Virus record (IMG/VR): IMGVR_UViG_3300045988_165922
Coordinates: 37,893-101,892 of that record
Origin: a virus
DNA: 64,000 nt
Strand: one strand, 5' to 3'
In this document: positions 1-15,620 of the stretch, one piece after another
How the letters are laid out: each line of letters opens with the position of its first letter
Position numbering within the stretch: position 1 is the stretch's first letter
Position numbers and translations under genes: made by a program
Notes under the pieces: generated by a model
Told to the model about the DNA's origin: nothing
The model's input: only the letters and a program-made list of their open reading frames with translations
Databases searched by the model: none

Positions 1-468
1 CCGGACCGGCGAATAAATCACATACTTGATGGTGTCCGTATCCCGCAGGATGATGCTGATTTCGCCAACGCTGTCCCGTTGGATGAACTGCACGATACCT
101 CGAACGGTTAGAGAACGCCGACTCAATAATATCCGGTCGCCAAGCTGAATTCGCTGTCCAACGAAACAATCATCTAATTCGACCAGCAGTTCCGCACCGG
201 TTTCGATGGACGAGTGGAAACTGTTCAGCGGGTTACGGAGAAAACTTCCAACCTTACAGTTCCAGTCGCGCTGTGCGTCGTGCAAGGTTTGGAAGCCGAC
301 TCCGCCAGATGTTCGCAAACCATTATCCACTGGACAAAAGTGGGAGTATTCCCAACCTTTCGGCAGAAAATATTGCTCGTCGTCCCAAGTGCAGTGGAGT
401 TCAGATTTAGCCCGATACTTAAATTCGGGAATGCTGTTACAGCATGGGCATGTAAGAAGGTTTCTCAC
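1..468 (-). CDS. hypothetical Cys-rich protein (CPCC...HC), 3' end cut by window edge
   Basis: minus-strand ORF open to position 1, hand-translated; GTG start overlaps the stop of the upstream gene (GTGA). Confidence 0.45.
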   Translation of the reverse strand, partial: MRNLLTCPCCNSIPEFKYRAKSELHCTWDDEQYFLPKGWEYSHFCPVDNGLRTSGGVGFQTLHDAQRDWNCKVGSFLRNPLNSFHSSIETGAELLVELDDCFVGQRIQLGDRILLSRRSLTVRGIVQFIQRDSVGEISIILRDTDTIKYVIYSPVR

Positions 469-722
469 CCCAGTCCTTTCTGAGTCCTTAAGAGTTCGTC
501 CAGTTTTTCCTCGATGCTTTCCAACCTCAAGCGCAACGCCTTCTGGCTTTCGTAGATGGCCGTAGTCTCACCGGAAACCTCATAGAGGCTTTTGTTGCCA
601 TACATGTCGTGCTTGTTGTCGGCCTGTATCTCAAGCTTCGCTATCTCCCGCTCCCGTTGCGACGGTTTGCGTGATTTCAGATAGTCCCTGCATTCGGGAC
701 TGAACATGTCCTCGTATCCCAT
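465..722 (-). CDS. hypothetical protein, 85 aa
   Basis: ORF track; ATG abuts the stop of the exonuclease gene (TAAATG), so translationally coupled. Confidence 0.55.
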   Translation of the reverse strand: MGYEDMFSPECRDYLKSRKPSQREREIAKLEIQADNKHDMYGNKSLYEVSGETTAIYESQKALRLRLESIEEKLDELLRTQKGLG

Positions 723-1307
723 TTAGCGGCCAAATTCCTCTCTGCGCATGGCTTCATACAGCATGTTTTCCTGAGTCGCGTCGGACAAGGCGCGATGCTC
801 TTCCACGTCACCGATACCATAGTCGCGGATAAGCACGGCAACCTTATGGCTTGGCTTTTCGGGATGGATTTTCCGGCTCATTTCCAACGTGTCCACGAAC
901 CGGTGGGGGAAGAAGAACATTCCACCGTTCACGGTTTTCATGGCCGCGTCCAAGAAACTTAAATCGAATGACGCGTTATGCGCCATGATGATGGTTCGTG
1001 GGCCAAGCCACTTGTCGAATCGGATGATGGCTTGACTTACGTCGGGTTGTCCGATGACCATGCTGTCGTTGATTCCGGTGAGCGAGGTGATGTATTCGGG
1101 GATTGGCTGGTGTGGGTCAATCAGTTGCTCGTATCGGTCTACGAGTTTTCCGTTATGGATTTTCACGGCTCCGATTTCAATGAGTTTGGCCCCGTTTTCG
1201 GGTTTGAAACCGGTGGTTTCGGTATCCAAGACCACGTAATCGTAGAGTGGTGTTTTCATTGGGTCGATTCTTCTGGGGTCTCGACTTTGGTATTTGTCCC
1301 AGCTCAT
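723..1307 (-). CDS. DEDDh 3'-5' exonuclease (DnaQ / Pol III epsilon-like)
   Basis: Exo I DTETTG, Exo II HNASFD and Exo III HRALSDA motifs present; motif promoter just upstream. Confidence 0.85.
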   Translation of the reverse strand: MSWDKYQSRDPRRIDPMKTPLYDYVVLDTETTGFKPENGAKLIEIGAVKIHNGKLVDRYEQLIDPHQPIPEYITSLTGINDSMVIGQPDVSQAIIRFDKWLGPRTIIMAHNASFDLSFLDAAMKTVNGGMFFFPHRFVDTLEMSRKIHPEKPSHKVAVLIRDYGIGDVEEHRALSDATQENMLYEAMRREEFGR

Positions 1308-1332
1308 GGTGTGGTCTCCTCGGATAAGTGAA

Positions 1333-1355
1333 TGTGTGGACGTTTCTAGTATAAC
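1333..1355 (-). promoter_or_regulatory. conserved promoter/leader motif copy (degenerate: tgtgtggacgtttctagtataac)
   Basis: matches the window-wide consensus; sits about 25 bp upstream of the exonuclease gene start. Confidence 0.5.
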
Positions 1356-1358
1356 GCC

Positions 1359-1628
1359 TTATCTGGTAATAGCCTTGACTCGTCCGTCCAGAACCGTTCT
1401 TACGACATCCTCGAAGTCGGTGTTGTCGGGCAATAGGCGGGAGTCTTGAAGGATTCCGATAATCTTCAACAGTTCCGTATGCCCGTGCGGAGTGCGCTTA
1501 TAGTCGCGGGTCGCACCCGCCTTGTATGCGCGACGCAACTGTAACGCCAACTGTTCCCGTGTGAGCGTGATGCAGTCGCCTTCCTCGATGGGATACCGTT
1601 CTTCCAGTTCTTCGTTGAGAATGCTCAT
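1359..1628 (-). CDS. hypothetical protein, 89 aa
   Basis: internal ATG (MSILNEELEE) with RBS GAAAGGAAAAAC; longer ORF-track start lacks an RBS. Confidence 0.5.
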   Translation of the reverse strand: MSILNEELEERYPIEEGDCITLTREQLALQLRRAYKAGATRDYKRTPHGHTELLKIIGILQDSRLLPDNTDFEDVVRTVLDGRVKAITR

Positions 1629-1653
1629 TTTTTTGTTTTTCCTTTCTGTTTTT

Positions 1654-2049
1654 TCAGACGTACATTCCCTCATGCCAGCCGTGTAGCAAACCCCATTCGG
1701 ATAGTTTCCGGAACCATTTCTCGCATTCGTCAGCCACCTTGTTGGGATAATCCAACGTCGGGTTCAAGTTGAGTAAATACTGGTAGTCGTAGGGTTGGCA
1801 GAAGTTCTCGTCCAACACGTCTATCTGCCAGTCGCTACCGTCCTTGGCAATCTCGACATTCAATGTCATGTCATGGTCGGGGGAGACTGAACGGCAGAGG
1901 TACCAATACCCCTCACGGTGGTCGGTGAATCCCAGTCGGCGCATGGTCGAATCTTCGGCGGGACTCATGCTAAGCGCCGCATTGTTCTGATGCTTCGTGT
2001 AGGTGATGCCTATGGTCGAGAATCGGGGCGTGTTCTGAGCGTCGGACAT
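1654..2049 (-). CDS. hypothetical protein, 131 aa
   Basis: ORF track; RBS TAGGAGAG 5 nt upstream of ATG. Confidence 0.55.
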   Translation of the reverse strand: MSDAQNTPRFSTIGITYTKHQNNAALSMSPAEDSTMRRLGFTDHREGYWYLCRSVSPDHDMTLNVEIAKDGSDWQIDVLDENFCQPYDYQYLLNLNPTLDYPNKVADECEKWFRKLSEWGLLHGWHEGMYV

Positions 2050-2057
2050 GTTCTCTC

Positions 2058-2429
2058 CTATTCTTCGCTTTTGCGCAGGTCGATTACCGGAATATGGGTA
2101 TCGGTGGAATAGTGGACGGAATAGGGGTCGATTGTCCTATGCCGCCAGCTGACGCCACCTTCCACTGGCCAAGCCAGCCAGCTTATGCCGTCCAAATAGT
2201 TCAGAATGCTGATGTGGGTAATCCAACGGCACCATCTTGTCGGGCATATCACGTCGAACATGGGTGTATTCTCGGTTCCCGGTCGGCAGGAATGCCGTTG
2301 CCAAGAGCGCAGGTATACGCGGTAGAGCGCATGGGAGTCGTCTGTTGGCAGTTCCTTGGTGTCGAATACTGCGCGAGTTGGGTGGTCATCGAAGAGGATT
2401 CGTTTGCCGAATTTAGTTGCTTGATTCAA
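2058..2429 (-). CDS. hypothetical protein, ~123 aa (TTG start)
   Basis: AAGGAG then 6 nt then TTG, immediately downstream of a motif copy; the ORF-track 5' extension would read through the motif. Confidence 0.45.
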   Translation of the reverse strand: MNQATKFGKRILFDDHPTRAVFDTKELPTDDSHALYRVYLRSWQRHSCRPGTENTPMFDVICPTRWCRWITHISILNYLDGISWLAWPVEGGVSWRHRTIDPYSVHYSTDTHIPVIDLRKSEE

Positions 2430-2457: not shown

Positions 2458-2482
2458 TTTGTTGTGAACAATCCCACTATAA
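2458..2482 (-). promoter_or_regulatory. conserved promoter/leader motif copy (ttgttgtgaacaatcccactataac)
   Basis: consensus match, oriented toward the 2058..2429 gene. Confidence 0.55.
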
Positions 2483-2514: not shown

Positions 2515-2970
2515 CTAAGCCAGCGTCCCGTTAAAAAAGAACTCCCTCTTCCCAACCCGATACAAACCCACACGAGAGCCGGACAGACGAAAATCAAAAC
2601 GACGGAAGAAACCCTCATACATCGGCAACAGCTCTTCCGGCACTGTCACCAGAGGGAACCGTTCATCCAGCGATTTCAATGCATATTCGACCAGCGTGGA
2701 ACCAACCCCTCGACTCCGAAAACCCTCGTAGACATACAAAGTGCAAATCTTCCGTTCAGACGGATTTCTCTTGAGAACGCAAAACCCCGCCAACTCACCG
2801 TTTATGCGGGCTAAAAGAATCGCACGGCCTTTCCCCAATGAGGGGAGAACCGTGCGGTTGAACCAAATATCGAAGCCGGGATAATACGTTCGGATTGTCC
2901 CCGGAATGGGAATAGAAGCCGCAGTGCCAGCGTCCCGAACTACACTAATCCTCAACGAACTCGAACACAT
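2515..2970 (-). CDS. GNAT family N-acetyltransferase
   Basis: acetyl-CoA binding motif VYEGFRSRGVGSTLVEYAL (R-x-x-G-x-G), ~150 aa. Confidence 0.75.
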   Translation of the reverse strand: MCSSSLRISVVRDAGTAASIPIPGTIRTYYPGFDIWFNRTVLPSLGKGRAILLARINGELAGFCVLKRNPSERKICTLYVYEGFRSRGVGSTLVEYALKSLDERFPLVTVPEELLPMYEGFFRRFDFRLSGSRVGLYRVGKREFFFNGTLA

Positions 2971-3190
2971 GAAAATCCGTCACACGCTCGACGTTGACAT
3001 GACTCGTATCATCCGGCCAAATATATAAGACCGGCATGTAACCGGACAGTTCACGAACTGCGAGATTGCTGAAACCGTCCAAGTAGAGGGTTCCGGCCAT
3101 GGGTTTGCCGTTCCATTTGAATATCGCGGACTTGCCTTCGAATTCTTTCCAGTTGATTCCGTCTTGATAGGGAAGTTCTTTTAAGGCCAT
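2945..3190 (-). CDS. hypothetical protein, 81 aa
   Basis: ORF track; RBS AAAAGGAAAACCA before ATG; degenerate motif upstream. Confidence 0.5.
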   Translation of the reverse strand: MALKELPYQDGINWKEFEGKSAIFKWNGKPMAGTLYLDGFSNLAVRELSGYMPVLYIWPDDTSHVNVERVTDFHVFEFVED

Positions 3191-3206
3191 TGGTTTTCCT
3201 TTTTTG

Positions 3207-3230
3207 GTGTGGGCTATCTCACTCTAACAC
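3207..3230 (-). promoter_or_regulatory. degenerate promoter/leader motif copy (ggtgtgggctatctcactctaacac)
   Basis: partial consensus match (TGTTAGAGTGAGATAGCCCACACC in gene orientation). Confidence 0.4.
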
Positions 3231-3271
3231 AACAGGGGTAATGCAAAGAACGAAAAACCACCTTCCCACAC

Positions 3272-3487
3272 TTAGAATTCCGGCTCCTCAACATTCAACA
3301 ACACCAGCCTCGGACGGCGGCGAAGAATCCTACAATCCTCGTCCCAAGCATTCAGAATCTCGCAAGCCAACACGGTCGCTTCTGAATCAAGAGTAGGCGT
3401 GGTACGCAGAACCGACTGGATGTTATCCAAGTCTGCGGATGGGAGTTCAGTCGCGTCATTAGCCGCGTCCAACAAGTAATGGGGCAT
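3272..3487 (-). CDS. hypothetical protein, 71 aa
   Basis: start MPHYLL with RBS GGAAGGAG 5 nt upstream. Confidence 0.5.
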   Translation of the reverse strand: MPHYLLDAANDATELPSADLDNIQSVLRTTPTLDSEATVLACEILNAWDEDCRILRRRPRLVLLNVEEPEF

Positions 3488-3553
3488 TCGCGCTCCTTCC
3501 AAAAATTGAGACGAGAATACCCGTGGAAGTCGTTTTCCACGGGCATTCTGGTA

Positions 3554-3883
3554 TCATTTACTGACTCCGTGAAGTTCTAGAACTTCGTTTAGTCCCTCAA
3601 GGCAATCGTCCTCAATAGTAGCGCTACCCCAAACGTTTTCCCACCATTCGTCCAACAGTTGCGTAGCGCTCATGTCGAGCTTCTTAAGGGTTTCGGTTGT
3701 AATGTCAGCGTATTCCAAAGATTCTTCATTCAAGTATGCGATTGTTCTTGGGGCTACCGCATACTTGTCGGGGTTGGCGTCGAGTCGTTTCAGGAAAGCC
3801 AATACGGTCTCTTTGTCGTGCTCGTTCAGTTCAGGGTCGTTTTTGGCTGAGGTGGTCAGATACTCATAGTAGTCGCTGTTCAT
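3554..3883 (-). CDS. hypothetical acidic protein, 109 aa
   Basis: ORF track; RBS AAAGGATAAAAA-ATG. Confidence 0.55.
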   Translation of the reverse strand: MNSDYYEYLTTSAKNDPELNEHDKETVLAFLKRLDANPDKYAVAPRTIAYLNEESLEYADITTETLKKLDMSATQLLDEWWENVWGSATIEDDCLEGLNEVLELHGVSK

Positions 3884-3922
3884 TTTTTATCCTTTTGGTC
3901 TAACGTTTTTTTGACGTGGGAG

Positions 3923-4087
3923 CTAGTCATTGCTCCAGTCGGTATTGCGTATGCCGAATTCGTTTCGTTTCGTGGATTGCGGGTTCCAAGCGCTACCGGC
4001 GTCCCATCCGTTATGAGTGGAACGGTTGTTCTTGTGAGTGTTGTTTTTATTGGGACTATCGGTTGCTACCCAGTCGTGGTTACTCAT
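3923..4087 (-). CDS. hypothetical small protein, ~54 aa
   Basis: internal ATG (MSNHDW) with RBS GAAAGG; low-complexity N/H/K-rich sequence. Confidence 0.3.
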   Translation of the reverse strand: MSNHDWVATDSPNKNNTHKNNRSTHNGWDAGSAWNPQSTKRNEFGIRNTDWSND

Positions 4088-4098
4088 TCGTGAACCTT

Positions 4099-4353
4099 TC
4101 AGGCGAACACTTTCACGGACTGGAATTCTTCGCCCATTTCGTTGCCGGATTCGCATTGGTTGACAATAACCCATGGTTTGACGCTGGGGAAGTGGAGGCT
4201 ATCGATTCTCACATACATGTCGGGTTGTGCCGTGCGATATTCCAGTATGCCTTCGATGGTTTCGCCGGTTTTGGTGACGGCGATGCACTTGTGGCCTTCC
4301 AAGTTTTGGGGGAGGGTGTTGTGCCAGTTGATTTCTGTGGTGGTGTTGCTCAT
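4099..4353 (-). CDS. hypothetical protein, 84 aa
   Basis: start MSNTTT with RBS AAGGAGAAAA; motif promoter upstream. Confidence 0.5.
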   Translation of the reverse strand: MSNTTTEINWHNTLPQNLEGHKCIAVTKTGETIEGILEYRTAQPDMYVRIDSLHFPSVKPWVIVNQCESGNEMGEEFQSVKVFA

Positions 4354-4382: not shown

Positions 4383-4404
4383 TGTGTGAACAATTCCAGT
4401 ATAT
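4383..4404 (-). promoter_or_regulatory. conserved promoter/leader motif copy (tgtgtgaacaattccagtatat)
   Basis: near-consensus copy; about 30 nt before the RBS of the 4099..4353 gene. Confidence 0.6.
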
Positions 4405-4471: not shown

Positions 4472-4846
4472 TCAGTAGCAGTTATCGCACCAGCTGGTAT
4501 CACCGCAAAGGTTCTCGTTCTCCTCGCTGAGAAGGCAACCGCAACCACTGCAATACGTGTTGGCTGGATTGTTGGACGAAGTGAAAGAACCTTCCCTGAC
4601 AATGGTTCCAGCCAAGTCGGCGATGGTGTAGATTGCCCGAGTGTCGGCTTCCGGTGCGGGATAGTCGGACATGCCTAGAATCCTGTTGTACACGTTCGTC
4701 AGTAGAGTGCGAACGTTTCCCACCTGACGAGTCCCATTCAGAATGGGAGTCGTCAAATGGTCGAAGAATTCTACCGTTGTATCCCAAGAATGCTGGCCTT
4801 CGTGGATTTCGATTTCCAGCTTTTCCTTGCCGTCGGTGAATCGCAT
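4472..4846 (-). CDS. hypothetical protein with C-terminal Cys cluster (CSGCGC...CGDTSWCDNC)
   Basis: ORF track; RBS AGGAAAACGAAA-ATG. Confidence 0.5.
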   Translation of the reverse strand: MRFTDGKEKLEIEIHEGQHSWDTTVEFFDHLTTPILNGTRQVGNVRTLLTNVYNRILGMSDYPAPEADTRAIYTIADLAGTIVREGSFTSSNNPANTYCSGCGCLLSEENENLCGDTSWCDNCY

Positions 4847-4856
4847 TTTCGTTTTC

Positions 4857-5273
4857 CTACAATTCTCTCATGGCCTTGTCTAAATCGGACACAATCGCGT
4901 CATACAGTCCGTCAACATCCAACGATTCCAGCTTATGTTCTTCCAGTTCGACGGGCGTGTATTCCCCGTCATCGAAAGTCCAGTGTGCGGACGGAACCGT
5001 GTATACTCCGCCACGCCAACGGTAGGAACGTCTGCCGTCTCGTTGCGAGTCGGCCACCAGATAGTACTCGACCTGCTTGCCCATGTAACGGTGTTGGAAT
5101 GCGACTTCGATTCCGTCTCCGAAGATGGCTCGGGTTGCGTGAGCGCCGGTCACGTAGGGGATTCTGACGAGTTTGTCGATGAGTTTCCGATAGGGTGTCT
5201 TCGCTGATTTTCGAGTACATTCTGATTGTCCTTTTTCGTGTAATTGGGGTTTGTGGTGATTGTTTTTCAGCAA
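4857..5273 (-). CDS. hypothetical protein, ~138 aa (start uncertain; TTG at 5273 or an internal ATG)
   Basis: ORF track; no clear RBS at either candidate start. Confidence 0.4.
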   Translation of the reverse strand: MLKNNHHKPQLHEKGQSECTRKSAKTPYRKLIDKLVRIPYVTGAHATRAIFGDGIEVAFQHRYMGKQVEYYLVADSQRDGRRSYRWRGGVYTVPSAHWTFDDGEYTPVELEEHKLESLDVDGLYDAIVSDLDKAMREL

Positions 5274-5527
5274 CAGTATTCGTTGACTGCGTTGACGAGT
5301 TCAGCCATGCTCATGCTGTATACGTCGCTGTGGCGGGCGTAGATGTCTTTTGCGAAGAGTCTGTTTTGCATGATGGTGCGGGCTTCGGGACTTTGAACGA
5401 GTTTCACGCTTTCGGGGAAGGTGCTTGAGAGGGCGTTGTCGTTGATTTGTTTGGCGTATTCGACTGCTTGTTTTTTGGGCATTTTCTTGACGTTGATTGC
5501 GCCGCCGATGTAGTGGATTGCGTACAT
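5267..5527 (-). CDS. hypothetical protein, 86 aa
   Basis: RBS AAAAGGAGCACATAAC-ATG; motif promoter upstream. Confidence 0.55.
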   Translation of the reverse strand: MYAIHYIGGAINVKKMPKKQAVEYAKQINDNALSSTFPESVKLVQSPEARTIMQNRLFAKDIYARHSDVYSMSMAELVNAVNEYCC

Positions 5528-5556: not shown

Positions 5557-5579
5557 TGTGTGAACAATTCCACTATAGC
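5557..5579 (-). promoter_or_regulatory. conserved promoter/leader motif copy (tgtgtgaacaattccactatagc)
   Basis: near-consensus copy, oriented toward the 5267..5527 gene. Confidence 0.6.
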
Positions 5580-5659
5580 ACACTTGAGAAAAACCGCAAA
5601 ACCCCAAAAAACAAAAGCGGGACACCAAAACAGCATCCCGCCTTCCCCCCCATCAAACC

Positions 5660-6625
5660 TCAATCGGACAAACCGGCACGGGCACGCATCTTGCGTTTAA
5701 TCTCACTACCCTTGGCAAACAAGCGCTCCATACGGGCCACGGTCTGCAACGCCTTCTTATACTCCTCCAATCGAGAAGAGATTTGCCAATTACGAGGTTC
5801 CGCTAACGACTCCTCAATTAGAGAATCGGGAACATCCCACATAAAGGACATAATCCAACGGCGGTTTTCCCCGCCCATGCGACGCCACAAGCGCACGGCA
5901 CGCTTACCTTTGACCCATTCCGGATTATTGAACAAGACTTGGATGGCGGATTCGTCGGAAAGGGAGTCCAACAACGGGTCTATGTCCGTTTCCTCCGCCA
6001 ACGGTGCCGATAGGGCGCGGATGGTTTCGTCTTCGCTTTTCACCCAATGCTCGAAGCAGAGCCTATCGGCCAGCTTGTTTTCCACCATGTAGCGGATAAC
6101 GTCGTAATCCGTTTCCTCCCAGTACAGGCTTGCAACGGTATGCTTTGCGGCGAGCTTGCGTAGTTCGGGGTCTTTGTCCTTGGCGAGGCTGGTCGCGGTC
6201 TTATAGTTGAGTTTTCCCTTGTATTCCAAATATTCGGCCACCTTGCGGCGAACGTCACGACTCCGGTCTTTCAACACGGTTTCACGCAGTCCGTCGTATA
6301 TCTTTCCGTCCTCGATTTTCATGTTGTACTTCAACTTGCAGTTGATGTAATAGTGACGGAACGGTAAGGGGAGAGGGAATATTCTTCCACTCCGGTAGAT
6401 GTTCTTAATGCTTTCCAGCAGGTCGATTCCCTTGTTGGTAAGCTTCCAACGGTCGCGTTCCTTGGTCAGTTCGATTAGGTTGGCTTCCTTGAATTTGTCT
6501 AAGGACTTCTGGTCGATGTATGCGCTCAGTCGTTGCGAGTGGGTTTCGTTGTCGAAGTCCTCGAAGCAGTAAACGAGGTTGGCAGTCCACTTTTTGGTAA
6601 GACTGTTGATTGCGTCGTTGTCCAT
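5660..6625 (-). CDS. HEAT/ARM-like repeat protein with N-terminal wHTH-like region, paralog A
   Basis: repeated D-x-x-x-VRR/LRK-A helix-repeat signatures (DRSRDVRRKVAE, DKDPELRKLAAK); clear paralog of 7627..8544; start MDNDAINSL with RBS GAAGGAG; the track's 5' extension reads through the motif. Confidence 0.6.
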   Translation of the reverse strand: MDNDAINSLTKKWTANLVYCFEDFDNETHSQRLSAYIDQKSLDKFKEANLIELTKERDRWKLTNKGIDLLESIKNIYRSGRIFPLPLPFRHYYINCKLKYNMKIEDGKIYDGLRETVLKDRSRDVRRKVAEYLEYKGKLNYKTATSLAKDKDPELRKLAAKHTVASLYWEETDYDVIRYMVENKLADRLCFEHWVKSEDETIRALSAPLAEETDIDPLLDSLSDESAIQVLFNNPEWVKGKRAVRLWRRMGGENRRWIMSFMWDVPDSLIEESLAEPRNWQISSRLEEYKKALQTVARMERLFAKGSEIKRKMRARAGLSD

Positions 6626-6647: not shown

Positions 6648-6671
6648 TTGTGTGAACAATTCCAGTATAGC
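6648..6671 (-). promoter_or_regulatory. conserved promoter/leader motif copy (ttgtgtgaacaattccagtatagc)
   Basis: consensus copy about 20 nt before the RBS of HEAT paralog A. Confidence 0.6.
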
Positions 6672-7093: not shown

Positions 7094-7114
7094 TGTGGCT
7101 CTTTCTCTCATATT

Positions 7115-8570: not shown

Positions 8571-8592
8571 TATGTGAACAATTCCAGTATAC
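8571..8592 (-). promoter_or_regulatory. conserved promoter/leader motif copy (tatgtgaacaattccagtatac)
   Basis: consensus copy upstream of HEAT paralog B. Confidence 0.6.
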
Positions 8593-8667: not shown

Positions 8668-9081
8668 TCAGCAGACGCTCGCGGAACCATCATCGCAAAG
8701 AGAGCATAACAGGCAACCGATGCCGTTAATATCCCTTGTCAGATGCACGCCCTTGGTGGAGCCGCACTCCTCACAACGAATGCCACTGTGCTTACGAGCG
8801 GTAGTGGAAGTGCGGGAGGGGGCAGACCCACGACGGTGGGTTTCCTTCCTTGGCGTGCCTATGACGTATTCCACACCGTCCAACACGAACGGCTTGCTGA
8901 CCTTGACGATGTTCACGTGAGACACTTCGCCGTTGGCTTTGAATACTGGGAACTCGTCGGTTTCACCAGCCTCGCTCCAATTGTCCCACCACTCTTTCGG
9001 GATTCGGACTTTCCAACCGTCCTTTAGCTTCGTCCAAGTCGGACGGGGTTCGGTCTTGGCGTCTTCGATAGTGTCACTCAT
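8668..9081 (-). CDS. hypothetical protein with C-terminal Cys cluster (CEECG...CLLCSLCDD)
   Basis: ORF track; RBS GAAAGGACAAAAA-ATG. Confidence 0.55.
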   Translation of the reverse strand: MSDTIEDAKTEPRPTWTKLKDGWKVRIPKEWWDNWSEAGETDEFPVFKANGEVSHVNIVKVSKPFVLDGVEYVIGTPRKETHRRGSAPSRTSTTARKHSGIRCEECGSTKGVHLTRDINGIGCLLCSLCDDGSASVC

Positions 9082-9092: not shown

Positions 9093-9470
9093 TCAGCGAG
9101 TGTATCCGATTTTCCTAAGCACATGGTCTTCGGGGCTGGAGAGACGCTTGATGACCTCTTCCGGCGTAAGGCTGATTCTCTTCGTGTGGAGTAGGGGTTG
9201 GAACGAGCAGGTGCGGAGGAACTTCGTGACCACGCCGTCTCTGCTCATGCGGGAAGGAATCTTCTGGTTTCGATACTGGCGGTAGGTGAAGCGGAGCCAA
9301 CGAATCGCCTGTTTCGAGTCGATGGTCTTCACATGGGGATTATCGGCGTAGGCTTTCACCCAGTTATTGCGTTCGGTGACGCTATGGAAAATCTGGATTA
9401 GGGGAATGTTGTTGTCAGGGTCGAGCTTCTGGTTGGGATGGTTGACGATGGCGGCGTAGTAGGTGTTCAT
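9093..9470 (-). CDS. hypothetical protein, 125 aa
   Basis: start MNTYYAAI with RBS AAGGAG; the track's 5' extension reads through the motif. Confidence 0.5.
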   Translation of the reverse strand: MNTYYAAIVNHPNQKLDPDNNIPLIQIFHSVTERNNWVKAYADNPHVKTIDSKQAIRWLRFTYRQYRNQKIPSRMSRDGVVTKFLRTCSFQPLLHTKRISLTPEEVIKRLSSPEDHVLRKIGYTR

Positions 9471-9497: not shown

Positions 9498-9520
9498 TTG
9501 TGTGAACAATCCCAGTATAT
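9498..9520 (-). promoter_or_regulatory. conserved promoter/leader motif copy (ttgtgtgaacaatcccagtatat)
   Basis: consensus copy upstream of the 9093..9470 gene. Confidence 0.6.
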
Positions 9521-9933: not shown

Positions 9934-10344
9934 CTATCGAAAAGTTAACGGCTCTTCGCCTATCCTCACAAGCAACTCGTTCAGTTCAGGTATGAGAATA
10001 TCCGTCTCAAGCTCTTCAATATCATGCTTGGTGAGGTAGAACACTTGCCTGTCCTTGTAATGCAACATGCCGTCAGTGTCGAACGATAGGCTTTCGAACA
10101 TGGTTTCGACCATATCCCAGAACAGGTTTCCGAACTGTTCTTTGGTTCGTTCGTCTTTCAGAACCGTATATACGGCGTGGGAGTATTGTTCGCCACGTTT
10201 CAAGTCCTTGTTCAGGCAACGTTCGCAACGATGGTATCCGTCCAAGTCTTTCACACAGTCGGAGCATAACGGTCGGGAGCATTCGGGGCAGAGGATAGTC
10301 CACTTGTTTGTTTTGCAGATTGCGCAGATTCCGTTGTTCAGCAC
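9934..10344 (-). CDS. zinc-finger protein (four CxxC pairs at N-terminus), 136 aa
   Basis: CAIC...CPEC...CSDC...CERC; GTG start with RBS AAGGAGC. Confidence 0.55.
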   Translation of the reverse strand: MLNNGICAICKTNKWTILCPECSRPLCSDCVKDLDGYHRCERCLNKDLKRGEQYSHAVYTVLKDERTKEQFGNLFWDMVETMFESLSFDTDGMLHYKDRQVFYLTKHDIEELETDILIPELNELLVRIGEEPLTFR

Positions 10345-10394: not shown

Positions 10395-11117
10395 TCAGTC
10401 CAACGGTCTGCCGCGTCCGACAATCTTCTTACCGTCCGCGTTCCGCAACCATGCCAAGCCGTGACCATAGGAAACAACACCAGCTTTGACGGTCGGATTC
10501 TGCTGGAACGTGTAATAAACTTCCACCAGTCCGCCGCCACCGTTCGCTTGCAGAATACGAATCCTGTAATCCTTTTCCACGGCTTTGATGGCCATATCCC
10601 GTTCGAGTTCATCAAACCAACCATAAAGTGGGAGCATGGCGAAAGCGGCTAATACTCCTACGGTGATGAACCGCCAATATGTTTTGGCCCCTACCAGTAG
10701 GGCGATTACCGCCACGAGAACGCCGATGATGGCGATTCCGGCCACGAGTTGACGCCAATTGCCGTTGCAATCGTACTCGACGGGAGCATAGGGATTGGTG
10801 AGGGTCGTCGCGGATTTGACGGGTTTTGACTGTTTGCGTGAGATGGTCGGCTTGTAGGTCTTCGGTTCTTTCGTGGACACGGTTTCGGTCTTTGCTTTAG
10901 GTTCCGTCTTGACTGTAGGGTCGTTCTTCGATTCGACGGGCTTAGGAACGTTCTTCTTTTCAGCTTCCATGGGCGGTGCCGGTGGTTTCAACATTTTCCG
11001 TTCCGTCTCTTTGACCACTCTTTGAAGTTCGATGGTGGTGGACGAGTCGGGTTCGTCCATCGGTTCCTGACCTAACATCATGAGGTCGTTTTCCAGCGAG
11101 ACATCCCGTTCTTTCAT
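10395..11117 (-). CDS. membrane protein with Pro/Lys/Thr-rich linker and one TM, 240 aa
   Basis: ORF track; RBS GAAAGGAAG; TM IAIIGVLVAVIALLVG. Confidence 0.55.
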   Translation of the reverse strand: MKERDVSLENDLMMLGQEPMDEPDSSTTIELQRVVKETERKMLKPPAPPMEAEKKNVPKPVESKNDPTVKTEPKAKTETVSTKEPKTYKPTISRKQSKPVKSATTLTNPYAPVEYDCNGNWRQLVAGIAIIGVLVAVIALLVGAKTYWRFITVGVLAAFAMLPLYGWFDELERDMAIKAVEKDYRIRILQANGGGGLVEVYYTFQQNPTVKAGVVSYGHGLAWLRNADGKKIVGRGRPLD

Positions 11118-11536: not shown

Positions 11537-11559
11537 TGTGTGGACATGACCACTATAAC
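11537..11559 (-). promoter_or_regulatory. degenerate promoter/leader motif copy (tgtgtggacatgaccactataac)
   Basis: consensus-like copy upstream of the 11203..11499 gene. Confidence 0.5.
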
Positions 11560-12106: not shown

Positions 12107-12129
12107 TGTGTGGACGATTCCAGTGTGCC
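12107..12129 (-). promoter_or_regulatory. degenerate promoter/leader motif copy (tgtgtggacgattccagtgtgcc)
   Basis: consensus-like copy upstream of the 11611..12045 gene. Confidence 0.5.
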
Positions 12130-12206
12130 ACAGAGGGATAATGCAAAAATCCCTCACTGCACAGCCGCAAAAAGCTAAACCCGTCGAATCCGACGGGTTT
12201 AGAATC

Positions 12207-12685: not shown

Positions 12686-12689
12686 CGCG

Positions 12690-12869
12690 TTACCTCCAGA
12701 ACAGGTGGGCGAGCGAATCGGCGTCGATGTATCGGCGTCGTCCGATTTTGTAGGTGCGTATGCGACCGGCCTTCAGCAGGTCGTACACGTGCTGTCGTGA
12801 GCAGGAGAGGTAGGCCATCGTGTCAGCTATAGTGAGGATGGCTGGCAGTTCCTTGGCTTTGGTTCTCAT
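12690..12869 (-). CDS. excisionase-family HTH protein (Xis/MerR-like), 59 aa
   Basis: hand-translated MRTKAKELPAILTIADTMAYLSCSRQHVYDLLKAGRIRTYKIGRRRYIDADSLAHLFWR; matches the excisionase-family DNA-binding HTH pattern; RBS AAAGGA. Confidence 0.6.
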   Translation of the reverse strand: MRTKAKELPAILTIADTMAYLSCSRQHVYDLLKAGRIRTYKIGRRRYIDADSLAHLFWR

Positions 12870-12887: not shown

Positions 12888-13277
12888 TTAATACCGGTAT
12901 TCGCAACCGGAATCCAAAAACTCGTGTTCGCCGTCGCTCCACAGCACGGCCTCTATGGTCGAAGGGTCGTTCAGGTCGATGAAAAACGCGGCAAGCTCGT
13001 CCACTGACAAGCGGGAAAACTCCTCGCCCACGGCTTTATAGAATTCGTCCCAAACGGCTTGGTCGGCGTCTGATTCCATGAGCGTGGAGAACCGTTCCGC
13101 CAGTTGCGCGGATGGGAGTATGGCATGGGAGAATCCTTCATCCGTGATGTCGAGCCATGCGTTCAGGCACCTGTCAGCCAGTTCGACGACCGGGAAGGTC
13201 AACATTCTCGTGGCGGTGCCCGTCCACTTGGTTTTCTTTAGAGAACTGACTTCTACGGCCTTGGTCTTGTGTTCCAT
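12888..13277 (-). CDS. hypothetical protein, 129 aa (paralog of 13745..14131)
   Basis: RBS TAGGAG; shares TxPVxELADxCxNxWLDIxD and C-terminal motifs with 13745..14131. Confidence 0.55.
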   Translation of the reverse strand: MEHKTKAVEVSSLKKTKWTGTATRMLTFPVVELADRCLNAWLDITDEGFSHAILPSAQLAERFSTLMESDADQAVWDEFYKAVGEEFSRLSVDELAAFFIDLNDPSTIEAVLWSDGEHEFLDSGCEYRY

Positions 13278-13309: not shown

Positions 13310-13332
13310 TGTGTGAACGATTCCAGTATAGC
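13310..13332 (-). promoter_or_regulatory. conserved promoter/leader motif copy (tgtgtgaacgattccagtatagc)
   Basis: consensus copy upstream of the 12888..13277 gene. Confidence 0.6.
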
Positions 13333-13409
13333 GCACTTTGTAAAACAGGCAACACGGACACGCCAAAAAACAAAAAGCCCCGCCAAAACGACGGGGCCAC
13401 AAACCAAAA

Positions 13410-13610
13410 CTAACGATTCATACTCAAACGAACCTCAACCGCGACGGTCAGCAACACCACCGTAATGGCGCACACGGATACGATACCGAACGTGCGGCCA
13501 AACGTGAACAGCCAAGTGCCGAACGAGTAGATGCCGAACGCGACTGCGGTTGCCGTCCCACCGAAAGCGATGGTGACAAGCGTCATGAGCAGAACGTCCT
13601 TGATATGCAT
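13410..13610 (-). CDS. small 2-TM membrane protein, 66 aa
   Basis: RBS AAAAGGAGAAAAA-ATG; two hydrophobic helices. Confidence 0.5.
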   Translation of the reverse strand: MHIKDVLLMTLVTIAFGGTATAVAFGIYSFGTWLFTFGRTFGIVSVCAITVVLLTVAVEVRLSMNR

Positions 13611-13648: not shown

Positions 13649-13671
13649 TTGTGTGAACAATTCCAGTATAC
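13649..13671 (-). promoter_or_regulatory. conserved promoter/leader motif copy (ttgtgtgaacaattccagtatac)
   Basis: consensus copy upstream of the 13410..13610 gene. Confidence 0.6.
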
Positions 13672-13744: not shown

Positions 13745-14131
13745 TCAGAACTCATGCTCGCAATCGGAATCGAGATACCATTTGTCCCCGTAACCCCAAA
13801 GAACACGACGGATGGTCGCAGGGTCGTTCAACTCCATGAACTTGGACGCCAGTTCATCCACCGACATGGCGGAAAAAGCCTTGCCAACGGAAGCATAGAA
13901 TTCATCCCATTCCGCCTGTTCGGCGTCGGAATCGACCAGCTCACGGAACCGTCCGGCAAGCTTCTCGTCCGGTAGGGAGGCTTCCGCAAAATTCGTGTCC
14001 TCTATGTCCAGCCAAGTGTTGAAACACTTGTCGGCCAACGCTTCAACCGGAATGGTGAGGATGCTGGAATACGTGCCCTTCCAAGCGTTTTTCTTGAAGA
14101 AGCTAACGTCTCGTGCCTTCATTTTTCTCAC
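13745..14131 (-). CDS. hypothetical protein, 128 aa (paralog of 12888..13277)
   Basis: RBS AGGAAGTGAGAAAA; paralog alignment holds over the full length. Confidence 0.55.
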   Translation of the reverse strand: MRKMKARDVSFFKKNAWKGTYSSILTIPVEALADKCFNTWLDIEDTNFAEASLPDEKLAGRFRELVDSDAEQAEWDEFYASVGKAFSAMSVDELASKFMELNDPATIRRVLWGYGDKWYLDSDCEHEF

Positions 14132-14134
14132 TTC

Positions 14135-14629
14135 CTATTCTTCGTCACTGTCCGCCTGACGGAGCGGAACGATACGGTTCCACTGTTCCTCATACTTGTC
14201 CTCCACATCCTTGGGACCATTGTCCAGCAGTTCGTTCAACGTGGCTCGTCCTACGTCGCTGAGACGGCTGATATTGCGGAGGATGTTCGCCACGTCGTCG
14301 GCTTCGTATAATTTGTTGCGATTGTCCAAAAGTTCCTGATATCGCGAGTCGGAGAGGTTCCAAAGATAGTCTTCCAGCAGTTTCCAGTCCTCCTTTTCGG
14401 CAGAGGGTACTGGAATCGGCTTGGTGAGCCGCCAATCTTCGAGAATGTCCGCCCAAAGGTCGGTCTTGACATTGTATTCGCCAAGGTCTTCCTCGTGGGT
14501 GAGTTTTTCGATTCGCTGTTCTTCGCCATCCTCGTCCAAGTAGTCTATTGTGAGATATTCCCTATCCACTGACAAGGTGGAGAGTTCGCGTAGTTTGGTG
14601 ATTTTGAGGTTGACGATTGTGTTAATCAT
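14135..14629 (-). CDS. hypothetical acidic protein, ~164 aa
   Basis: start MINTIVNLK with an AAGGAGG-like RBS; the track's 5' extension reads through the motif. Confidence 0.5.
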   Translation of the reverse strand: MINTIVNLKITKLRELSTLSVDREYLTIDYLDEDGEEQRIEKLTHEEDLGEYNVKTDLWADILEDWRLTKPIPVPSAEKEDWKLLEDYLWNLSDSRYQELLDNRNKLYEADDVANILRNISRLSDVGRATLNELLDNGPKDVEDKYEEQWNRIVPLRQADSDEE

Positions 14630-14660
14630 TTTTTGTTCCTCCTTGTTGGAATCTATTTTT

Positions 14661-14683
14661 TGTGTGAACAATCCCAGTATACC
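14661..14683 (-). promoter_or_regulatory. conserved promoter/leader motif copy (tgtgtgaacaatcccagtatacc)
   Basis: consensus copy upstream of the 14135..14629 gene. Confidence 0.6.
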
Positions 14684-14743
14684 ATGTTTGTTGTGAAAAA
14701 CAAAAACAGCCCACTCCCCAAAGCAAGGAAGCGGGCTGAAAAG

Positions 14744-15568
14744 TCAGGCATTCAGCAAAGCGTGGGACGAAACACCCATTTCAGACAAACCCAAACCCAC
14801 ATTGTTCGCGTCACTCACACCACGGGCAAAACCATCCTTGCTACCACGAGCAGTGGCCGCATGACCCGACACCAGCTCAAGCTTGTCAAAATACTCGTTC
14901 AGACGCTGACTCTTACATGACACCAGCTCACGACCGGAAGGAATGGCGAGACTCTGCTTGCGAAGCTCCTCGAAACGTTCGCTCAAACGTTCGTTGAATC
15001 CACCGCGATAACCATAGTAGAACTTGGCGCGTGGATAATCACGACGCATGTACTGTTTGCATTCCGTCAGCGTCGGATAGGATTCACGTCCGTAATGCGT
15101 TTCGACGTATTCCTTGTTGTCCTCATAGTACGCTTTGGCGTGCTTGTCAATCATGTCCGCGTAGCTAGTACGGGCGTGGACTGAGCAGTATAGGTCGATG
15201 CTTTGGAAGAGAAGGACTGCGGCGTTCACATCGTCCTCCTCGCCTACGAACATGACGGCACGTTCCTCAATCCTTCCGCCACACCGGCTTTCGTGAAGGT
15301 AGGCGCGGCATTCGTTAGCTTGGGCGATGATGGTCGCAAGGTAGCCTTGCTGATGGTAGATGGTGGTTTTGCTTACGTTCACGCCACGTTCGATGATTGG
15401 CTTGTTCGTGCGGGTGCGGTCGCGTTTCCAGTCTTCGATACGATATTCGTTAATGAGTTTCTGTGCCCGCTCGAACGCCATTTGCGCCTCATTGTCGCTG
15501 GATGCTTCGTTTTCGGCTATTGCCATGAGGTTGTTGATGCGTTCGATGATGCTGTCGATGTTGCTCAT
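14744..15568 (-). CDS. DUF2786-like protein (N-terminal IIERINNLMAIAENEAS...AQKLINEY signature), 274 aa
   Basis: N-terminal motif resembles the DUF2786 family common on actinobacterial plasmids and phages; RBS AAGGAGC. Confidence 0.5.
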   Translation of the reverse strand: MSNIDSIIERINNLMAIAENEASSDNEAQMAFERAQKLINEYRIEDWKRDRTRTNKPIIERGVNVSKTTIYHQQGYLATIIAQANECRAYLHESRCGGRIEERAVMFVGEEDDVNAAVLLFQSIDLYCSVHARTSYADMIDKHAKAYYEDNKEYVETHYGRESYPTLTECKQYMRRDYPRAKFYYGYRGGFNERLSERFEELRKQSLAIPSGRELVSCKSQRLNEYFDKLELVSGHAATARGSKDGFARGVSDANNVGLGLSEMGVSSHALLNA

Positions 15569-15596
15569 TTTTTGCTCCTTGGTTTTTCGACTTTTC

Positions 15597-15620
15597 CTGT
15601 GTGAACAATTCCAGTATACC
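15597..15620 (-). promoter_or_regulatory. conserved promoter/leader motif copy (ctgtgtgaacaattccagtatacc)
   Basis: consensus copy; first motif of the minus-strand island. Confidence 0.6.

Follow-up and report, generated by a model that had tools for sequence, protein, structure and literature searches.

The first 15,620 nucleotides of the window (the whole 64,000-nucleotide stretch analysed here) raise the question of what a long row of small genes, all read in one direction and mostly without an assigned role, does for its element, and whether it is the anti-defence island that the initial annotation suggested. The proposed set of about 35 small minus-strand genes holds: we count 34, with starts chosen by Shine-Dalgarno (SD) site and promoter, all on the minus strand, and the ORF listing contains no credible plus-strand gene. 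The proposed end at position 1 is wrong, as related contigs carry the same-orientation array on for at least 10 kb. Positions 1-15620 are one end, the truncated upstream part, of a co-oriented array of at least 26 kb. Beyond position 1, the continuation includes an RNA ligase (PHA02142-like) and a DUF3310 gene. Gaps between array genes are mostly 8-160 nt and neighbouring genes touch or overlap at only about 2-6 junctions, so that the "many" TAAATG, GTGA and ATGA couplings were overstated. Gene calls on 11 metagenomic contigs, either near-identical or related, give the same layout, and no array ORF in them contains an internal stop; differences from these relatives at codon positions 1, 2 and 3 number 116, 71 and 258, a substitution bias from which we conclude that the array ORFs are real genes.

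Several of the original assignments were recovered by profile searches (Table 1), namely the DEDDh exonuclease, the GNAT acetyltransferase, the Xis-like HTH protein and the DUF2786-like protein. Four Cys-rich proteins could be located, as proposed, and both internal paralog pairs are genuine (g3/g5, 55% identity; g16/g19, 30% identity, E 1.6e-46). For the latter pair the paralogy stands, but its HEAT repeats are sub-threshold in Pfam (E about 1e-3); the proposed ribbon-helix-helix protein is likewise only a possible one.

Table 1. Features of the array, from its upstream boundary to the window edge, and the motif-bearing operon outside it
Feature	Position	Strand	Remarks
Motif promoter, 0 mismatches	15598..15618	-	Heads DUF2786 gene; upstream boundary of array; equivalent motif at 28267 for pMP7017 DUF2786 gene
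g1, 274 aa, DUF2786 + DUF7168	14744..15568	-	Pfam 4.7e-09 and 3.6e-08; phrog_421 1.6e-29; 30% identity to pMP7017 DUF2786 protein
Intrinsic terminator, 13-bp stem + T run	14707..14738	-	Between g1 and next promoter
Motif promoter, 1 mismatch	14661..14681	-	g2-g3
g2, 164 aa, acidic (pI 4.4)	14135..14629	-	Confined to this plasmid lineage; 49 homologue clusters, all of same element type
g3, 125 aa, acidic	13745..14122	-	Paralog of g5
Motif promoter, 0 mismatches	13650..13670	-	g4
g4, 66 aa, hydrophobic, membrane-like	13410..13610	-	Start from promoter + SD; 66 aa in relatives too
Intrinsic terminator	13376..13398	-	After g4
Motif promoter, 1 mismatch	13310..13330	-	g5-g8; L002 deletion junction
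g5, 129 aa, acidic	12888..13277	-	Paralog of g3; 38 homologue clusters, lineage-restricted
g6, 59 aa, HTH_17/excisionase-family DNA-binding protein	12690..12869	-	Pfam 1.1e-10; TIGR01764 3.2e-07
g7, 52 aa, possible ribbon-helix-helix	12527..12685	-	RHH_5 E 0.015, below cut-off
g8, ~107-112 aa, hydrophobic C-terminal segment	12207..12545	-	37% identity to pMP7017 ORF adjoining Lar gene
Intrinsic terminator	12175..12202	-	After g8
Diverged motif promoter, 4 mismatches	12107..12127	-	g9
g9, 144-156 aa	11611..12081	-	SD suggests non-canonical CTG start at 12081; GTG at 12045 called in relatives
Diverged motif promoter, 5 mismatches	11537..11557	-	g10-g13
g10, 98 aa	11203..11499	-	
g11, 240 aa, Lys/Pro-rich N-terminus + transmembrane segments	10395..11117	-	
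g12, 136 aa, 8 Cys, B-box-like zinc-finger N-terminus	9934..10344	-	Cys-rich; zf-B_box E 0.0011, sub-threshold
g13, 117 aa, C-terminal transmembrane segment	9571..9924	-	Partial deletion in L010, L012
Motif promoter, 1 mismatch	9499..9519	-	g14-g15
g14, 125 aa, basic (pI 10.2)	9093..9470	-	
g15, 137 aa, C-terminal Cys cluster	8668..9081	-	Cys-rich
Motif promoter, 1 mismatch	8571..8591	-	g16-g17
g16, 305 aa, weak winged-helix N-terminus + HEAT-like repeats	7627..8544	-	HEAT E 6e-4; 130 homologues, named ones B. pseudocatenulatum and B. catenulatum; 23% identity to motif-driven pMP7017 ORF
g17, 98 aa	7272..7568	-	
Intrinsic terminator, 15-bp stem	7174..7207	-	After g17
Motif promoter, 1 mismatch	7115..7135	-	g18; one partner of L004/L008 deletion
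g18, 102-108 aa, single-gene cassette	6785..7111	-	Missing in L004, L008
Motif promoter, 0 mismatches	6649..6669	-	g19; second partner of L004/L008 deletion
g19, 321 aa, HEAT-like	5660..6625	-	Paralog of g16; HEAT_2 E 9.5e-4
Intrinsic terminator, 15-bp stem	5613..5645	-	After g19
Motif promoter, 1 mismatch	5557..5577	-	g20-g22; second partner of L002 deletion
g20 (86 aa), g21 (~120-138 aa), g22 (124 aa, C-terminal Cys cluster)	4472..5527	-	g22 Cys-rich, 4472-4846
Motif promoter, 0 mismatches	4383..4403	-	g23-g28
g23 (84 aa), g24 (54 aa in relatives), g25 (109 aa, pI 4.2)	in 2945..4353	-	g23 phrog_21331
g26 (71 aa), g27 (81 aa)	in 2945..4353	-	
g28, 151 aa, GNAT acetyltransferase	2515..2970	-	Acetyltransf_1 3.2e-08; phrog_13728 1.6e-17
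Diverged motif promoter, 4 mismatches	2461..2481	-	g29-g31
g29 (123 aa, TTG start), g30 (131 aa), g31 (89-104 aa)	1359..2429	-	
Diverged motif promoter, 4 mismatches	1333..1353	-	g32-g34
g32, 194 aa, DEDDh (DnaQ/RNase T family) 3'-5' exonuclease	723..1307	-	RNase_T 3e-32 (Pfam); 56% identity to motif-driven pMP7017 exonuclease; identical protein on 558 contigs
g33 (85 aa) + N-terminal 156 aa of g34	1..722	-	Window edge cuts g34 (Cys-rich, 1-468); 189 aa in relatives, CPCC... Cys cluster; full-length g34 has no Lar or other Pfam match
Motif promoter, 2 mismatches + operon	59753..63093	+	Outside array; ends in orphan N6/N4 DNA methyltransferase, 62137-63093

The conjugative-element context that had been suggested is borne out by the coupling-protein-like ATPase of the window, which shares 59% identity with its counterparts on B. 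longum and B. breve megaplasmids. The element represents an undeposited lineage related to the Bifidobacterium conjugative megaplasmid pMP7017, and its own relatives are contigs of about 205-232 kb that are common in human gut metagenomes. Despite this backbone likeness, pMP7017 has a homologue for only six of the 34 array proteins, leaving 28 with none. It is highly improbable that the array was taken over from the early or accessory genes of a phage, which would make the element a phage-plasmid mosaic. PHROG matches for the DUF2786 protein, g23, the exonuclease, the acetyltransferase and the excisionase-like HTH protein, as well as the RNA ligase and DUF3310 of the continuation, would fit such an origin; however, the phage collection yielded no DNA match, structural, terminase and lysis genes are absent from the 64-kb window and its flanks, and the promoter motif is common to plasmid backbone operons.

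That motif is a 21-nt sequence, TATACTGGAATTGTTCACACA, of which positions 1-15620 hold 14 minus-strand copies against 0 expected by chance in dinucleotide shuffles. The motif promoters reported initially are therefore real, although their number is 14 rather than eleven; ten copies have at most one mismatch and four (at 1333, 2461, 11537 and 12107) are diverged. In the motif, a -10 box (TATACT) runs directly into a conserved downstream block, GGAATTGTTCACACAAAA, within which a TGTnnACA palindrome surrounds the position where transcription is expected to start. A copy recurs at nearly every one to four genes. Downstream of every copy lie an SD site, at a motif-to-SD/start distance of 20-45 nt and with AAGGAG in the leader, and then a start codon. 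Five copies are directly preceded by a strong terminator, the order often being the terminator of the previous unit, promoter, leader and one to six small genes. We show the array to be a series of self-contained expression cassettes carried by pMP7017-family Bifidobacterium conjugative megaplasmids.

A 34-bp "pMP7017-specific regulon" motif has been published by Dineen et al. (2024), who proposed that it is a transcription-factor site (PMC10832533). The array motif is a variant of it, separated from its core by three substitutions and one inserted base. Our scan of pMP7017 returned 24 copies, which precede DUF2786, exonuclease, SSB and RNA-ligase/Lar/methyltransferase units, at a density much lower than the 14 per 15.6 kb found here. 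What is new is this density, the extension of at least 10 kb past position 1, and the gain and loss of cassettes between relatives.

A strict leading region would directly adjoin oriT and be the first part to enter, in single-stranded form; Frpo/ssi-type hairpin promoters would drive its transcription before the complementary strand is made. Whether the array is such a region can be judged from its promoters and from the wider layout. The genes are co-oriented, and from 36.8 kb to past position 1 nearly all are directed away from the divergent ParA-like/ATPase operon at about 37-42.8 kb, a layout shared by the pMP7017 backbone. The array, however, begins some 21 kb from the divergent region, the interval being occupied by DnaB, SPFH, pilus and reverse-transcriptase genes, and its motif promoters are ordinary double-strand -10 promoters with no conserved hairpin partner around the motif, no Frpo-like single-strand hairpin and no Rfam match. 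Searches for the relaxase and oriT, to which linkage had been left unproven, found neither, nor a nick site or notable inverted repeat. Together, this makes a strict leading region improbable. The failure to find a relaxase or oriT, and the PLSDB typing of pMP7017 as non-mobilizable, also count against the establishment role favoured below.

The array is hypervariable among close relatives, with whole-cassette differences in eight of the 11. L002 has a 7.7-kb cassette deletion between the promoters at 13310..13330 and 5557..5577, and L004 and L008 have lost the g18 cassette between those at 7115..7135 and 6649..6669; all three junctions fall inside the promoter repeat or at its edge. Extra cassettes in L003 and L011 arrive with their own perfect motif copies. 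These differences show that the plasmids acquire, lose and exchange cassettes, and the repeated promoter may have a second role as short homology for shuffling them.

With respect to anti-defence, searches of Pfam, NCBIfam and PHROGs returned no known anti-defence family among the array proteins, none of which matches ArdA, KlcA, ArdC, Ocr, Lar, PsiB, SSB or an anti-CRISPR, and none matches a PDB sequence. Fold comparison of two acidic proteins, in line with the remote-homology check suggested initially, gave nothing further: the AF2 models of g2 (pLDDT 68) and g5 (pLDDT 77, pTM 0.71) have no solved-structure relative among PDB folds, and these proteins are therefore not classed as anti-defence. 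An ArdA-like identity for g2 was rejected on the basis of its model, and acidity by itself is not diagnostic. The anti-defence reading draws partial support from relatives. In L003, an ArdcN+Peptidase_M78 gene follows the g20 homologue; the pMP7017 counterpart array carries a Lar restriction-alleviation gene, a 931-aa DNA methyltransferase, an RNA ligase and an ATP-grasp protein; and the pMP7017 regulon lists SSB, an N6/N4 methyltransferase and a DnaQ exonuclease. DUF2786 genes adjoin orphan methyltransferases on pMP7017, and on a B. pumilus plasmid one lies in an array with SNF2, LPD11, C5-methyltransferase and UvrX/YolD. Transcription opposite to the coupling-protein/conjugation-ATPase operon is a trait that the array shares with the establishment cluster of p576 (PMC6294495).

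The array could also be generic accessory cargo, a fast-evolving gene store under a strong plasmid-specific promoter, constitutive or activated in the resident host, and serving maintenance, replication/repair or host physiology rather than entry or counter-defence. The lack of anti-defence matches fits this view, as does the generic nature of the recognisable enzymes (exonuclease, GNAT). Furthermore, the pMP7017 motif was first found upstream of six genes highly transcribed at mid-log in an established transconjugant, and its regulon is a mixture that includes Cas I-E and sortase genes (PMC10832533), besides phosphatase and RNA-repair genes. Against it stand the extreme gene turnover relative to the backbone, the fact that in relatives the same arrays or the same regulon include ArdC, Lar, methyltransferase and SSB genes, and the strict co-orientation over at least 26 kb, pointing away from the conjugation-ATPase operon; on balance, we consider it unlikely, though the most serious of the alternatives.

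We favour, at a probability of roughly 0.55, a shared-motif cassette regulon that helps the plasmid to establish itself and to counter defences in new Bifidobacterium hosts. The shared -10/+1 block would be the operator for a single plasmid-encoded DNA-binding factor, and the GGAATTGTTCACAC block is expected to matter for regulation. The regulon would comprise all cassettes and the methyltransferase operon at 59.7-63 kb, which by its sequence belongs to it: the orphan methyltransferase is indeed distant from the array, as initially noted, and is tied to it by regulation and not adjacency, because of the motif copy at 59753. By analogy with the Reg576 regulon of the Bacillus plasmid p576, it may be switched on as the plasmid arrives in a cell without the factor, and be turned down thereafter. 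The small DNA-binding proteins g6 and g7 are unlikely to be the common regulator, since both are missing from L002, which retains the motif promoters. The high transcription in an established host and the Cas I-E and sortase genes indicate that expression is not obviously restricted to entry and that the factor could be an activator; the mid-log transcription argues against a purely transient entry programme. The cargo that would serve establishment and counter-defence consists mostly of lineage-restricted orphan proteins, alongside the DEDDh exonuclease, the GNAT acetyltransferase, the DUF2786 protein, Zn/Cys proteins and small DNA binders.

The array probably helps the plasmid to settle in new hosts, and we regard it as a good hunting ground for anti-defence genes rather than a demonstrated anti-defence island.

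The island at window positions 1-15620 is a modular array of promoter-gene-terminator cassettes built on one common promoter/+1 block, and comparison with related contigs shows that cassettes are exchanged at this block. Its strongest feature is a 21-nt motif, TATACTGGAATTGTTCACACA, which is present in 10 copies with at most one mismatch and in 4 more diverged copies, all 14 on the minus strand, where shuffled sequence gave an expectation of 0. The initial annotation counted eleven motif promoters restarting transcription through the island; the count rises to 14. Each motif fuses a -10-like TATACT, often with TG just upstream, to a conserved block, GGAATTGTTCACACAAAA, which covers the predicted start of transcription and includes the palindrome TGTnnACA. 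The conservation after TATACT extends for ~18 nt and ends in CACAnAAAA, and the -35 region is poorly conserved. Every island copy has an AAGGAG-like site and a start codon 20-45 nt further downstream, nearly every one to four genes have a copy of their own, and five promoters are directly preceded by strong intrinsic terminators whose stems measure 10-15 bp. The recurrence of motif, leader, gene(s) and terminator therefore makes the array a chain of self-contained units. The series runs past the window edge as more diverged copies, and further copies occur on the plus strand outside the island (see the table). Chromosomes are nearly devoid of the motif: the exact 21-mer had a single isolated match among 185,579 species-representative genomes, in an unrelated Aggregatilineales MAG, which is taken as chance. 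An Rfam search of the promoters returned no family match.

All 34 genes called in the island, from a six-frame ORF listing with starts refined on Shine-Dalgarno and promoter positions, lie on the minus strand, in keeping with the ~35 one-strand genes of the initial annotation. Gene calls made independently on 11 relatives (metagenomic contigs carrying the same or a related array) match them gene for gene, and the only opposite-strand genes within the relatives' arrays are inserted IS200/IS605 elements. Since substitutions between the island ORFs and diverged relatives number 116/71/258 at codon positions 1/2/3, and no ORF has an internal stop in any relative compared, we conclude that the small ORFs are real genes. 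Family profiles recovered the predicted DEDDh exonuclease, GNAT acetyltransferase, Xis-like HTH protein and DUF2786-like protein, and at least four small Cys-cluster proteins had been expected where four Cys-rich proteins were found; the two internal paralogue pairs are also present, at 55% and 30% identity. The HEAT-like proteins g16 and g19 are indeed paralogous, but their HEAT assignment, like the assignment of an RHH protein, comes from sub-threshold matches. Two statements did not hold: stop-start couplings, described as many, amount to only ~2-6 overlapping junctions, and the island does not end at window position 1, where the window edge cuts an array that extends in relatives by at least another 10 kb, unchanged in orientation, and encodes there an RNA ligase, an ATP-grasp (R2K_3) protein and a DUF3310 protein.

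Longer ORFs at 13435-13806, 11114-11698, 4199-4450 and 6957-7196, as well as extended starts giving 5660-6781 and 7627-8607, were rejected in favour of the shorter genes backed by Shine-Dalgarno sites and the relatives' gene calls; the strings YWNCSHK and LFTQ appear in the spurious long ORFs because the promoter motif is translated in read-through. For g9, a CTG properly spaced after an AAGGAG, and in frame with a GTG used by relatives, may be a non-canonical start. The G+C content of window positions 1-16000 is 0.49-0.53 (0.55 in one 2-kb bin), compared with 0.54-0.57 in the adjacent backbone at 22000-36000.

Features of the array and its surroundings, in window coordinates
Feature	Position	Strand	Remark
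DEDDh exonuclease	723-1307	minus	RNase_T/DEDDh profile
GNAT acetyltransferase	2515-2970	minus
g19	5660-6625	minus	HEAT-like
Single-gene cassette	6785-7111	minus	absent from L004 and L008
g16	7627-8544	minus	HEAT-like
g9 candidate start	12045-12093	minus	promoter 12107, CTG 12081, GTG 12045
g7	12527-12685	minus	weak RHH
g6	12690-12869	minus	HTH_17/excisionase-like
g5	12888-13277	minus	same family as g3
g3	13745-14122	minus	same family as g5
g2	14135-14629	minus	164 aa
g1	14744-15568	minus	DUF2786+DUF7168
AAA_16 (STAND-like) ATPase	15793-17013	plus
Reverse transcriptase block	17121-20235	minus	reverse transcriptase of 409 aa
Sortase-dependent surface cluster	22158-31093	minus
587-aa protein	34462-36225	minus
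IetA/IteA-like AAA ATPase	38897-39853	plus
398-aa protein	44074-45270	plus
886-aa ATPase	45723-48383		coupling-protein-like
Replication/partition module	54068-56269		ParA gene on plus strand
RepA_C replicase	55400-56269	minus
341-aa protein	58459-59484	plus
Motif copies outside the island	37128, 59753, 63739, weakly 60222	plus	each heads plus-strand gene(s)
Orphan methyltransferase	62137		operon headed by motif copy 59753

Whole cassettes differ from the window in eight of the 11 relatives. A 7.7-kb difference in L002 removes eight promoter units, the crossover falling at the upstream border of the promoter repeat; L004 and L008 lack one single-gene cassette, with the crossover inside TATACTGGAAT(C/T)GTTCACACAA; and the extra cassettes of L003 and L011 bring perfect motif copies of their own. 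Taken together, these junctions and cassettes suggest that the repeated promoter also provides short homology for cassette shuffling, and cassette exchange thus appears to proceed via this homology. The three families that were searched (g2, g5 and g16) are restricted to this plasmid group. Co-oriented, small, mostly unknown and rapidly exchanged gene cassettes are equally the hallmark of integron arrays; integron cassettes, however, share a Pc promoter, whereas every cassette here has its own, and we rejected an integron since there is no integrase among the called genes, the repeats are promoters rather than attC, and no attC sites were found. Besides exchange at the promoter repeat, IS200/IS605 insertions are a second source of rearrangement in the relatives. 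Copies of tnpA and tnpB, the latter with a Cas12f-like TNB domain, pepper the arrays of L004, L005, L008, L010 and L011, and one Resolvase+TnpB unit occurs among the array insertions of the relatives.

By megablast, the island DNA had no match in the phage and plasmid collections (PLSDB for plasmids), nor had the backbone at 31-55 kb in the plasmid collection. At the protein level, the 886-aa ATPase shares 59% identity, across 99% of its length, with proteins of six B. longum and B. breve megaplasmids, including the B. breve megaplasmid pMP7017, and has more remote relatives among the type IV coupling proteins of Arthrobacter-group plasmids; synteny with pMP7017 covers the ParA-like, 398-aa and ATPase genes as well as the DnaB block. 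On these protein-level matches, the element belongs to the pMP7017 megaplasmid family, within which it represents an undeposited lineage. The window encodes DnaB, an SPFH protein, a ParA-like ATPase, RepA_C, a reverse transcriptase, an N6/N4 methyltransferase and a sortase-pilus-adhesin cluster. Exact island proteins were found on hundreds of metagenomic contigs, the longest of which cluster at 205-232 kb, consistent with a plasmid of ~205-232 kb; the exact exonuclease occurs on 558 contigs and the exact ATPase on 288, and the lineage is abundant in human gut metagenomes. Its G+C content is ~0.52-0.53, against 0.57 in pMP7017. The host is probably Bifidobacterium, as judged solely from homologues bearing that name, with B. 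pseudocatenulatum and B. catenulatum as the named sources of g16 homologues.

Neither the promoter type nor the idea of a regulon is new, since a 34-bp motif and a presumed regulon have already been published for pMP7017. As described by Dineen et al. (2024; PMC10832533), this conserved motif, AWAYATGY-TATACT-GAATATGTCCACATAAAAWA, overlaps the -10 box, is absent from chromosomes and likely represents a transcription-factor site; its 19 copies drive 56 genes of a presumed pMP7017-specific regulon, whose table lists SSB, N6/N4 methyltransferase, DnaQ-type exonuclease and Cas I-E genes. Our own scan of the plasmid found 24 copies, which immediately precede the genes for the DUF2786 protein, the exonuclease, SSB and a HEAT-like homologue and head an array of RNA ligase, ASCH, Lar restriction-alleviation protein, ATP-grasp protein and a 931-aa methyltransferase. 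The TATACT -10 box, the fused downstream block and the ribosome-binding site and start codon that follow are common to both plasmids; the cores compared, TATACTGAATATGTCCACATAAAA and TATACTGGAATTGTTCACACAAAA, differ by one inserted base and three substitutions, the variants of the two lineages being TGTTCACA and TGTCCACA, and the DUF2786, DEDDh exonuclease and HEAT-like genes are motif-headed in both. The plasmids differ in motif density, with 14 copies per 15.6 kb in the island where pMP7017 has no more than 7 per 20 kb, and in content, as only 6 of the 34 island proteins have a homologue in pMP7017 and 28 have none. Recombination between motif copies and cassette turnover go unmentioned in the sections consulted of Dineen et al. 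(2024; PMC10832533). What is new relative to that work is an undeposited lineage, an unusually dense set of promoter-tagged cassettes, and evidence for exchange at the repeat.

The initial annotation likened the island to anti-defence or leading regions, an interpretation that we consider plausible but only partly supported. The hints in its favour come from the relatives and the regulon. In L003, the g20 homologue is followed by an alternative cassette, an ArdcN+Peptidase_M78 (ArdC-type) gene; in pMP7017, the counterpart array includes Lar and a large methyltransferase, SSB and methyltransferase are motif-driven, and DUF2786 genes adjoin orphan methyltransferases. The orphan methyltransferase of the window does lie far from the island, as first remarked, but a copy of the motif heads its operon. 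Almost every gene from 36.8 kb down through the island is oriented away from the ParA-like/ATPase operon, and pMP7017 has the same arrangement. In a Bacillus pumilus plasmid, SNF2, LPD11, a C5-methyltransferase and UvrX/YolD accompany a DUF2786 gene in an array of small genes, a content similar to that of the anti-defence islands described by Samuel et al. (2024; PMC11541004). Our island shares with the latter its co-orientation on a conjugative element; however, it matches their mix of methyltransferase, SSB, anti-restriction and small genes only when its relatives are included, and it lacks both Frpo/ssi hairpin promoters and a known anti-defence gene inside. An Frpo-like single-stranded DNA promoter was ruled out when DNA reaching 150 nt to either side of each of the 14 motifs was folded on both strands: no conserved pairing partner for the -10 region emerged, and no Frpo/ssi-type hairpin.

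Within the island itself, no protein matches a known anti-defence family in Pfam, PHROGs or NCBIfam, no anti-defence, methyltransferase or SSB gene was recognised in window 1-15620, and a PDB sequence search with 31 island proteins gave 0 matches at E <= 1. Three candidates were rejected. The acidic g2 product (pI 4.4) is about the size of ArdA, but it has no Pfam match, and its AF2 model (pLDDT 68) found no PDB match by Foldseek at E <= 0.001. The g3/g5 family (model pLDDT 77, pTM 0.71) likewise had no PDB match by Foldseek to suggest a known fold. For g34, the likeness to Lar (CPxC ... WN) is by eye only, and the full-length g34 of L012 matched 0 Pfam families at E <= 10 and nothing in NCBIfam. 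As for transfer, no relaxase was found with Pfam or NCBIfam among the 398-aa, 587-aa, 886-aa, 1343-aa and other proteins, and the divergent region at 36.5-43 kb holds no inverted repeat telling of an oriT; pMP7017 also has no relaxase by MOB-suite and is typed as non-mobilizable in PLSDB. The 398-aa protein, encoded directly upstream of the coupling-protein-like ATPase and without Pfam or NCBIfam match, keeps its position in pMP7017 and is where an unrecognised relaxase would most obviously be sought. The 587-aa protein, also without match in these databases, looks ParB/sulfiredoxin-like by eye in its C-terminal half. Overall, the island offers a clearly delimited search ground for new counter-defence proteins, such a function being a candidate one only.

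Several neighbours of the array deserve mention. The reverse transcriptase (Pfam RVT_1) matches the generic PADLOC reverse transcriptase model at 6e-26 and DRT UG9/UG20 more weakly, and is followed by 203-aa and 335-aa proteins without family match; the block may be a defence-type module. In relatives, the reverse transcriptase is truncated to 328-384 aa or adjoined by IS200/IS605. The sole opposite-strand gene between this block and the array encodes the AAA_16 ATPase, which is kept in all relatives and called there as 385 aa. Another AAA ATPase resembles the anti-phage ATPase IetA/IteA (PADLOC, 2e-62; the NCBIfam score of 176 bits falls short of the 510-bit cut-off); the gene after it encodes only 88 aa, and no IetS-like protease partner is evident. 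In the surface cluster, a 2066-aa protein bears RCC1 and SdrD_B repeats and ends in a sorting-signal-like C-terminus; it is accompanied by sortase-like 301-aa and pilin-like 564-aa proteins, both assigned only by eye and from the pMP7017 annotation, and the adhesin measures 1785-2066 aa across relatives. The orientation and neighbours of the replication/partition module vary among L014, L015 and L016. On the relatives' records, the 341-aa protein encoded just upstream of the motif-headed methyltransferase operon shows a weak nuclease signature of the GmrSD_C/DUF1524 type.

A precedent for shared control is found in the establishment cluster of the Bacillus pumilus plasmid p576, which is transcribed opposite to the conjugation genes and in which four promoters over 7.9 kb share an operator, dual TTATCCC heptamers located upstream of the -35 box or in the spacer/leader, bound by the autoregulated RHH repressor Reg576, so that expression is transient on entry (Val-Calvo et al., 2018; PMC6294495). 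Like our array, this cluster sits on a Gram-positive conjugative plasmid, consists of small, mostly unknown genes, and has several promoters with one motif and transcription opposite to conjugation genes; p576 also carries ardC. It differs in that the window array has a single block over the -10 box and start site, in at least 14-18 copies, and the two systems have no sequence relationship. In the leading region of the IncN plasmids pKM101/R46, CUP repeats, which bear a promoter, reportedly precede ardA, ardB, ardK and other genes and are said to provide both co-regulation and recombination sites; that system is Gram-negative, reportedly with repeats of hundreds of bp and ArdK/ArdR regulators, and has no sequence relationship to ours; the comparison serves as a lead.

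We propose that the common promoter/+1 block would be the operator of one plasmid-encoded factor, uniting the array and the other motif-headed operons in one regulon that would be de-repressed on entry into a naive cell and would serve establishment and counter-defence. The pMP7017 motif was first found, according to Dineen et al. (2024; PMC10832533), upstream of genes highly expressed in the established host in steady-state culture; hence the factor may act as an activator or may repress only partially. The g6 (HTH_17) and g7 (weak RHH) genes lie under a motif promoter, and they are unlikely to encode the common regulator, as L002 lacks both, which makes them dispensable, and yet retains its motif promoters. 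The g16/g19 proteins (weak winged helix and HEAT-like), conserved and motif-driven in both lineages, are speculative regulator candidates with putative DNA binding. A Peptidase_M78 (ImmA/IrrE-like) gene and a small upstream gene form a conserved pair in both plasmid lineages (14409-15265 in L015/L016, ~4.4 kb past the right end of the window; 24932-26028 in pMP7017, close to the DUF2786 gene); this pair is a possible switch of the ImmR/ImmA type and a possible controller of the regulon. The most far-reaching proposal combines an integrase-free cassette-exchange system at the repeat, a common, rapidly renewed pool of more than 50 orphan genes open to the gut Bifidobacterium megaplasmids, many novel-fold anti-restriction, anti-CRISPR or anti-abortive-infection proteins among them, and one plasmid-encoded repressor whose absence from the entered cell would allow joint switch-on; we regard it as unlikely that all of this holds together.

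Bifidobacteria are hard to manipulate genetically, largely owing to restriction and other defence barriers, and pMP7017-type megaplasmids are, to our knowledge, the only large conjugative plasmids described in this medically and industrially relevant genus. If the array is an establishment and counter-defence toolkit, it would offer dozens of compact, separately promoted candidate genes, two of them modelled without a known fold, a defined promoter-operator usable for expression in Bifidobacterium, and a simple model for modular gene exchange on plasmids driven by repeated regulatory sequences. Should it not be such a toolkit, it still represents a clear example of a plasmid-specific regulon with an operator that doubles as a recombination hotspot.
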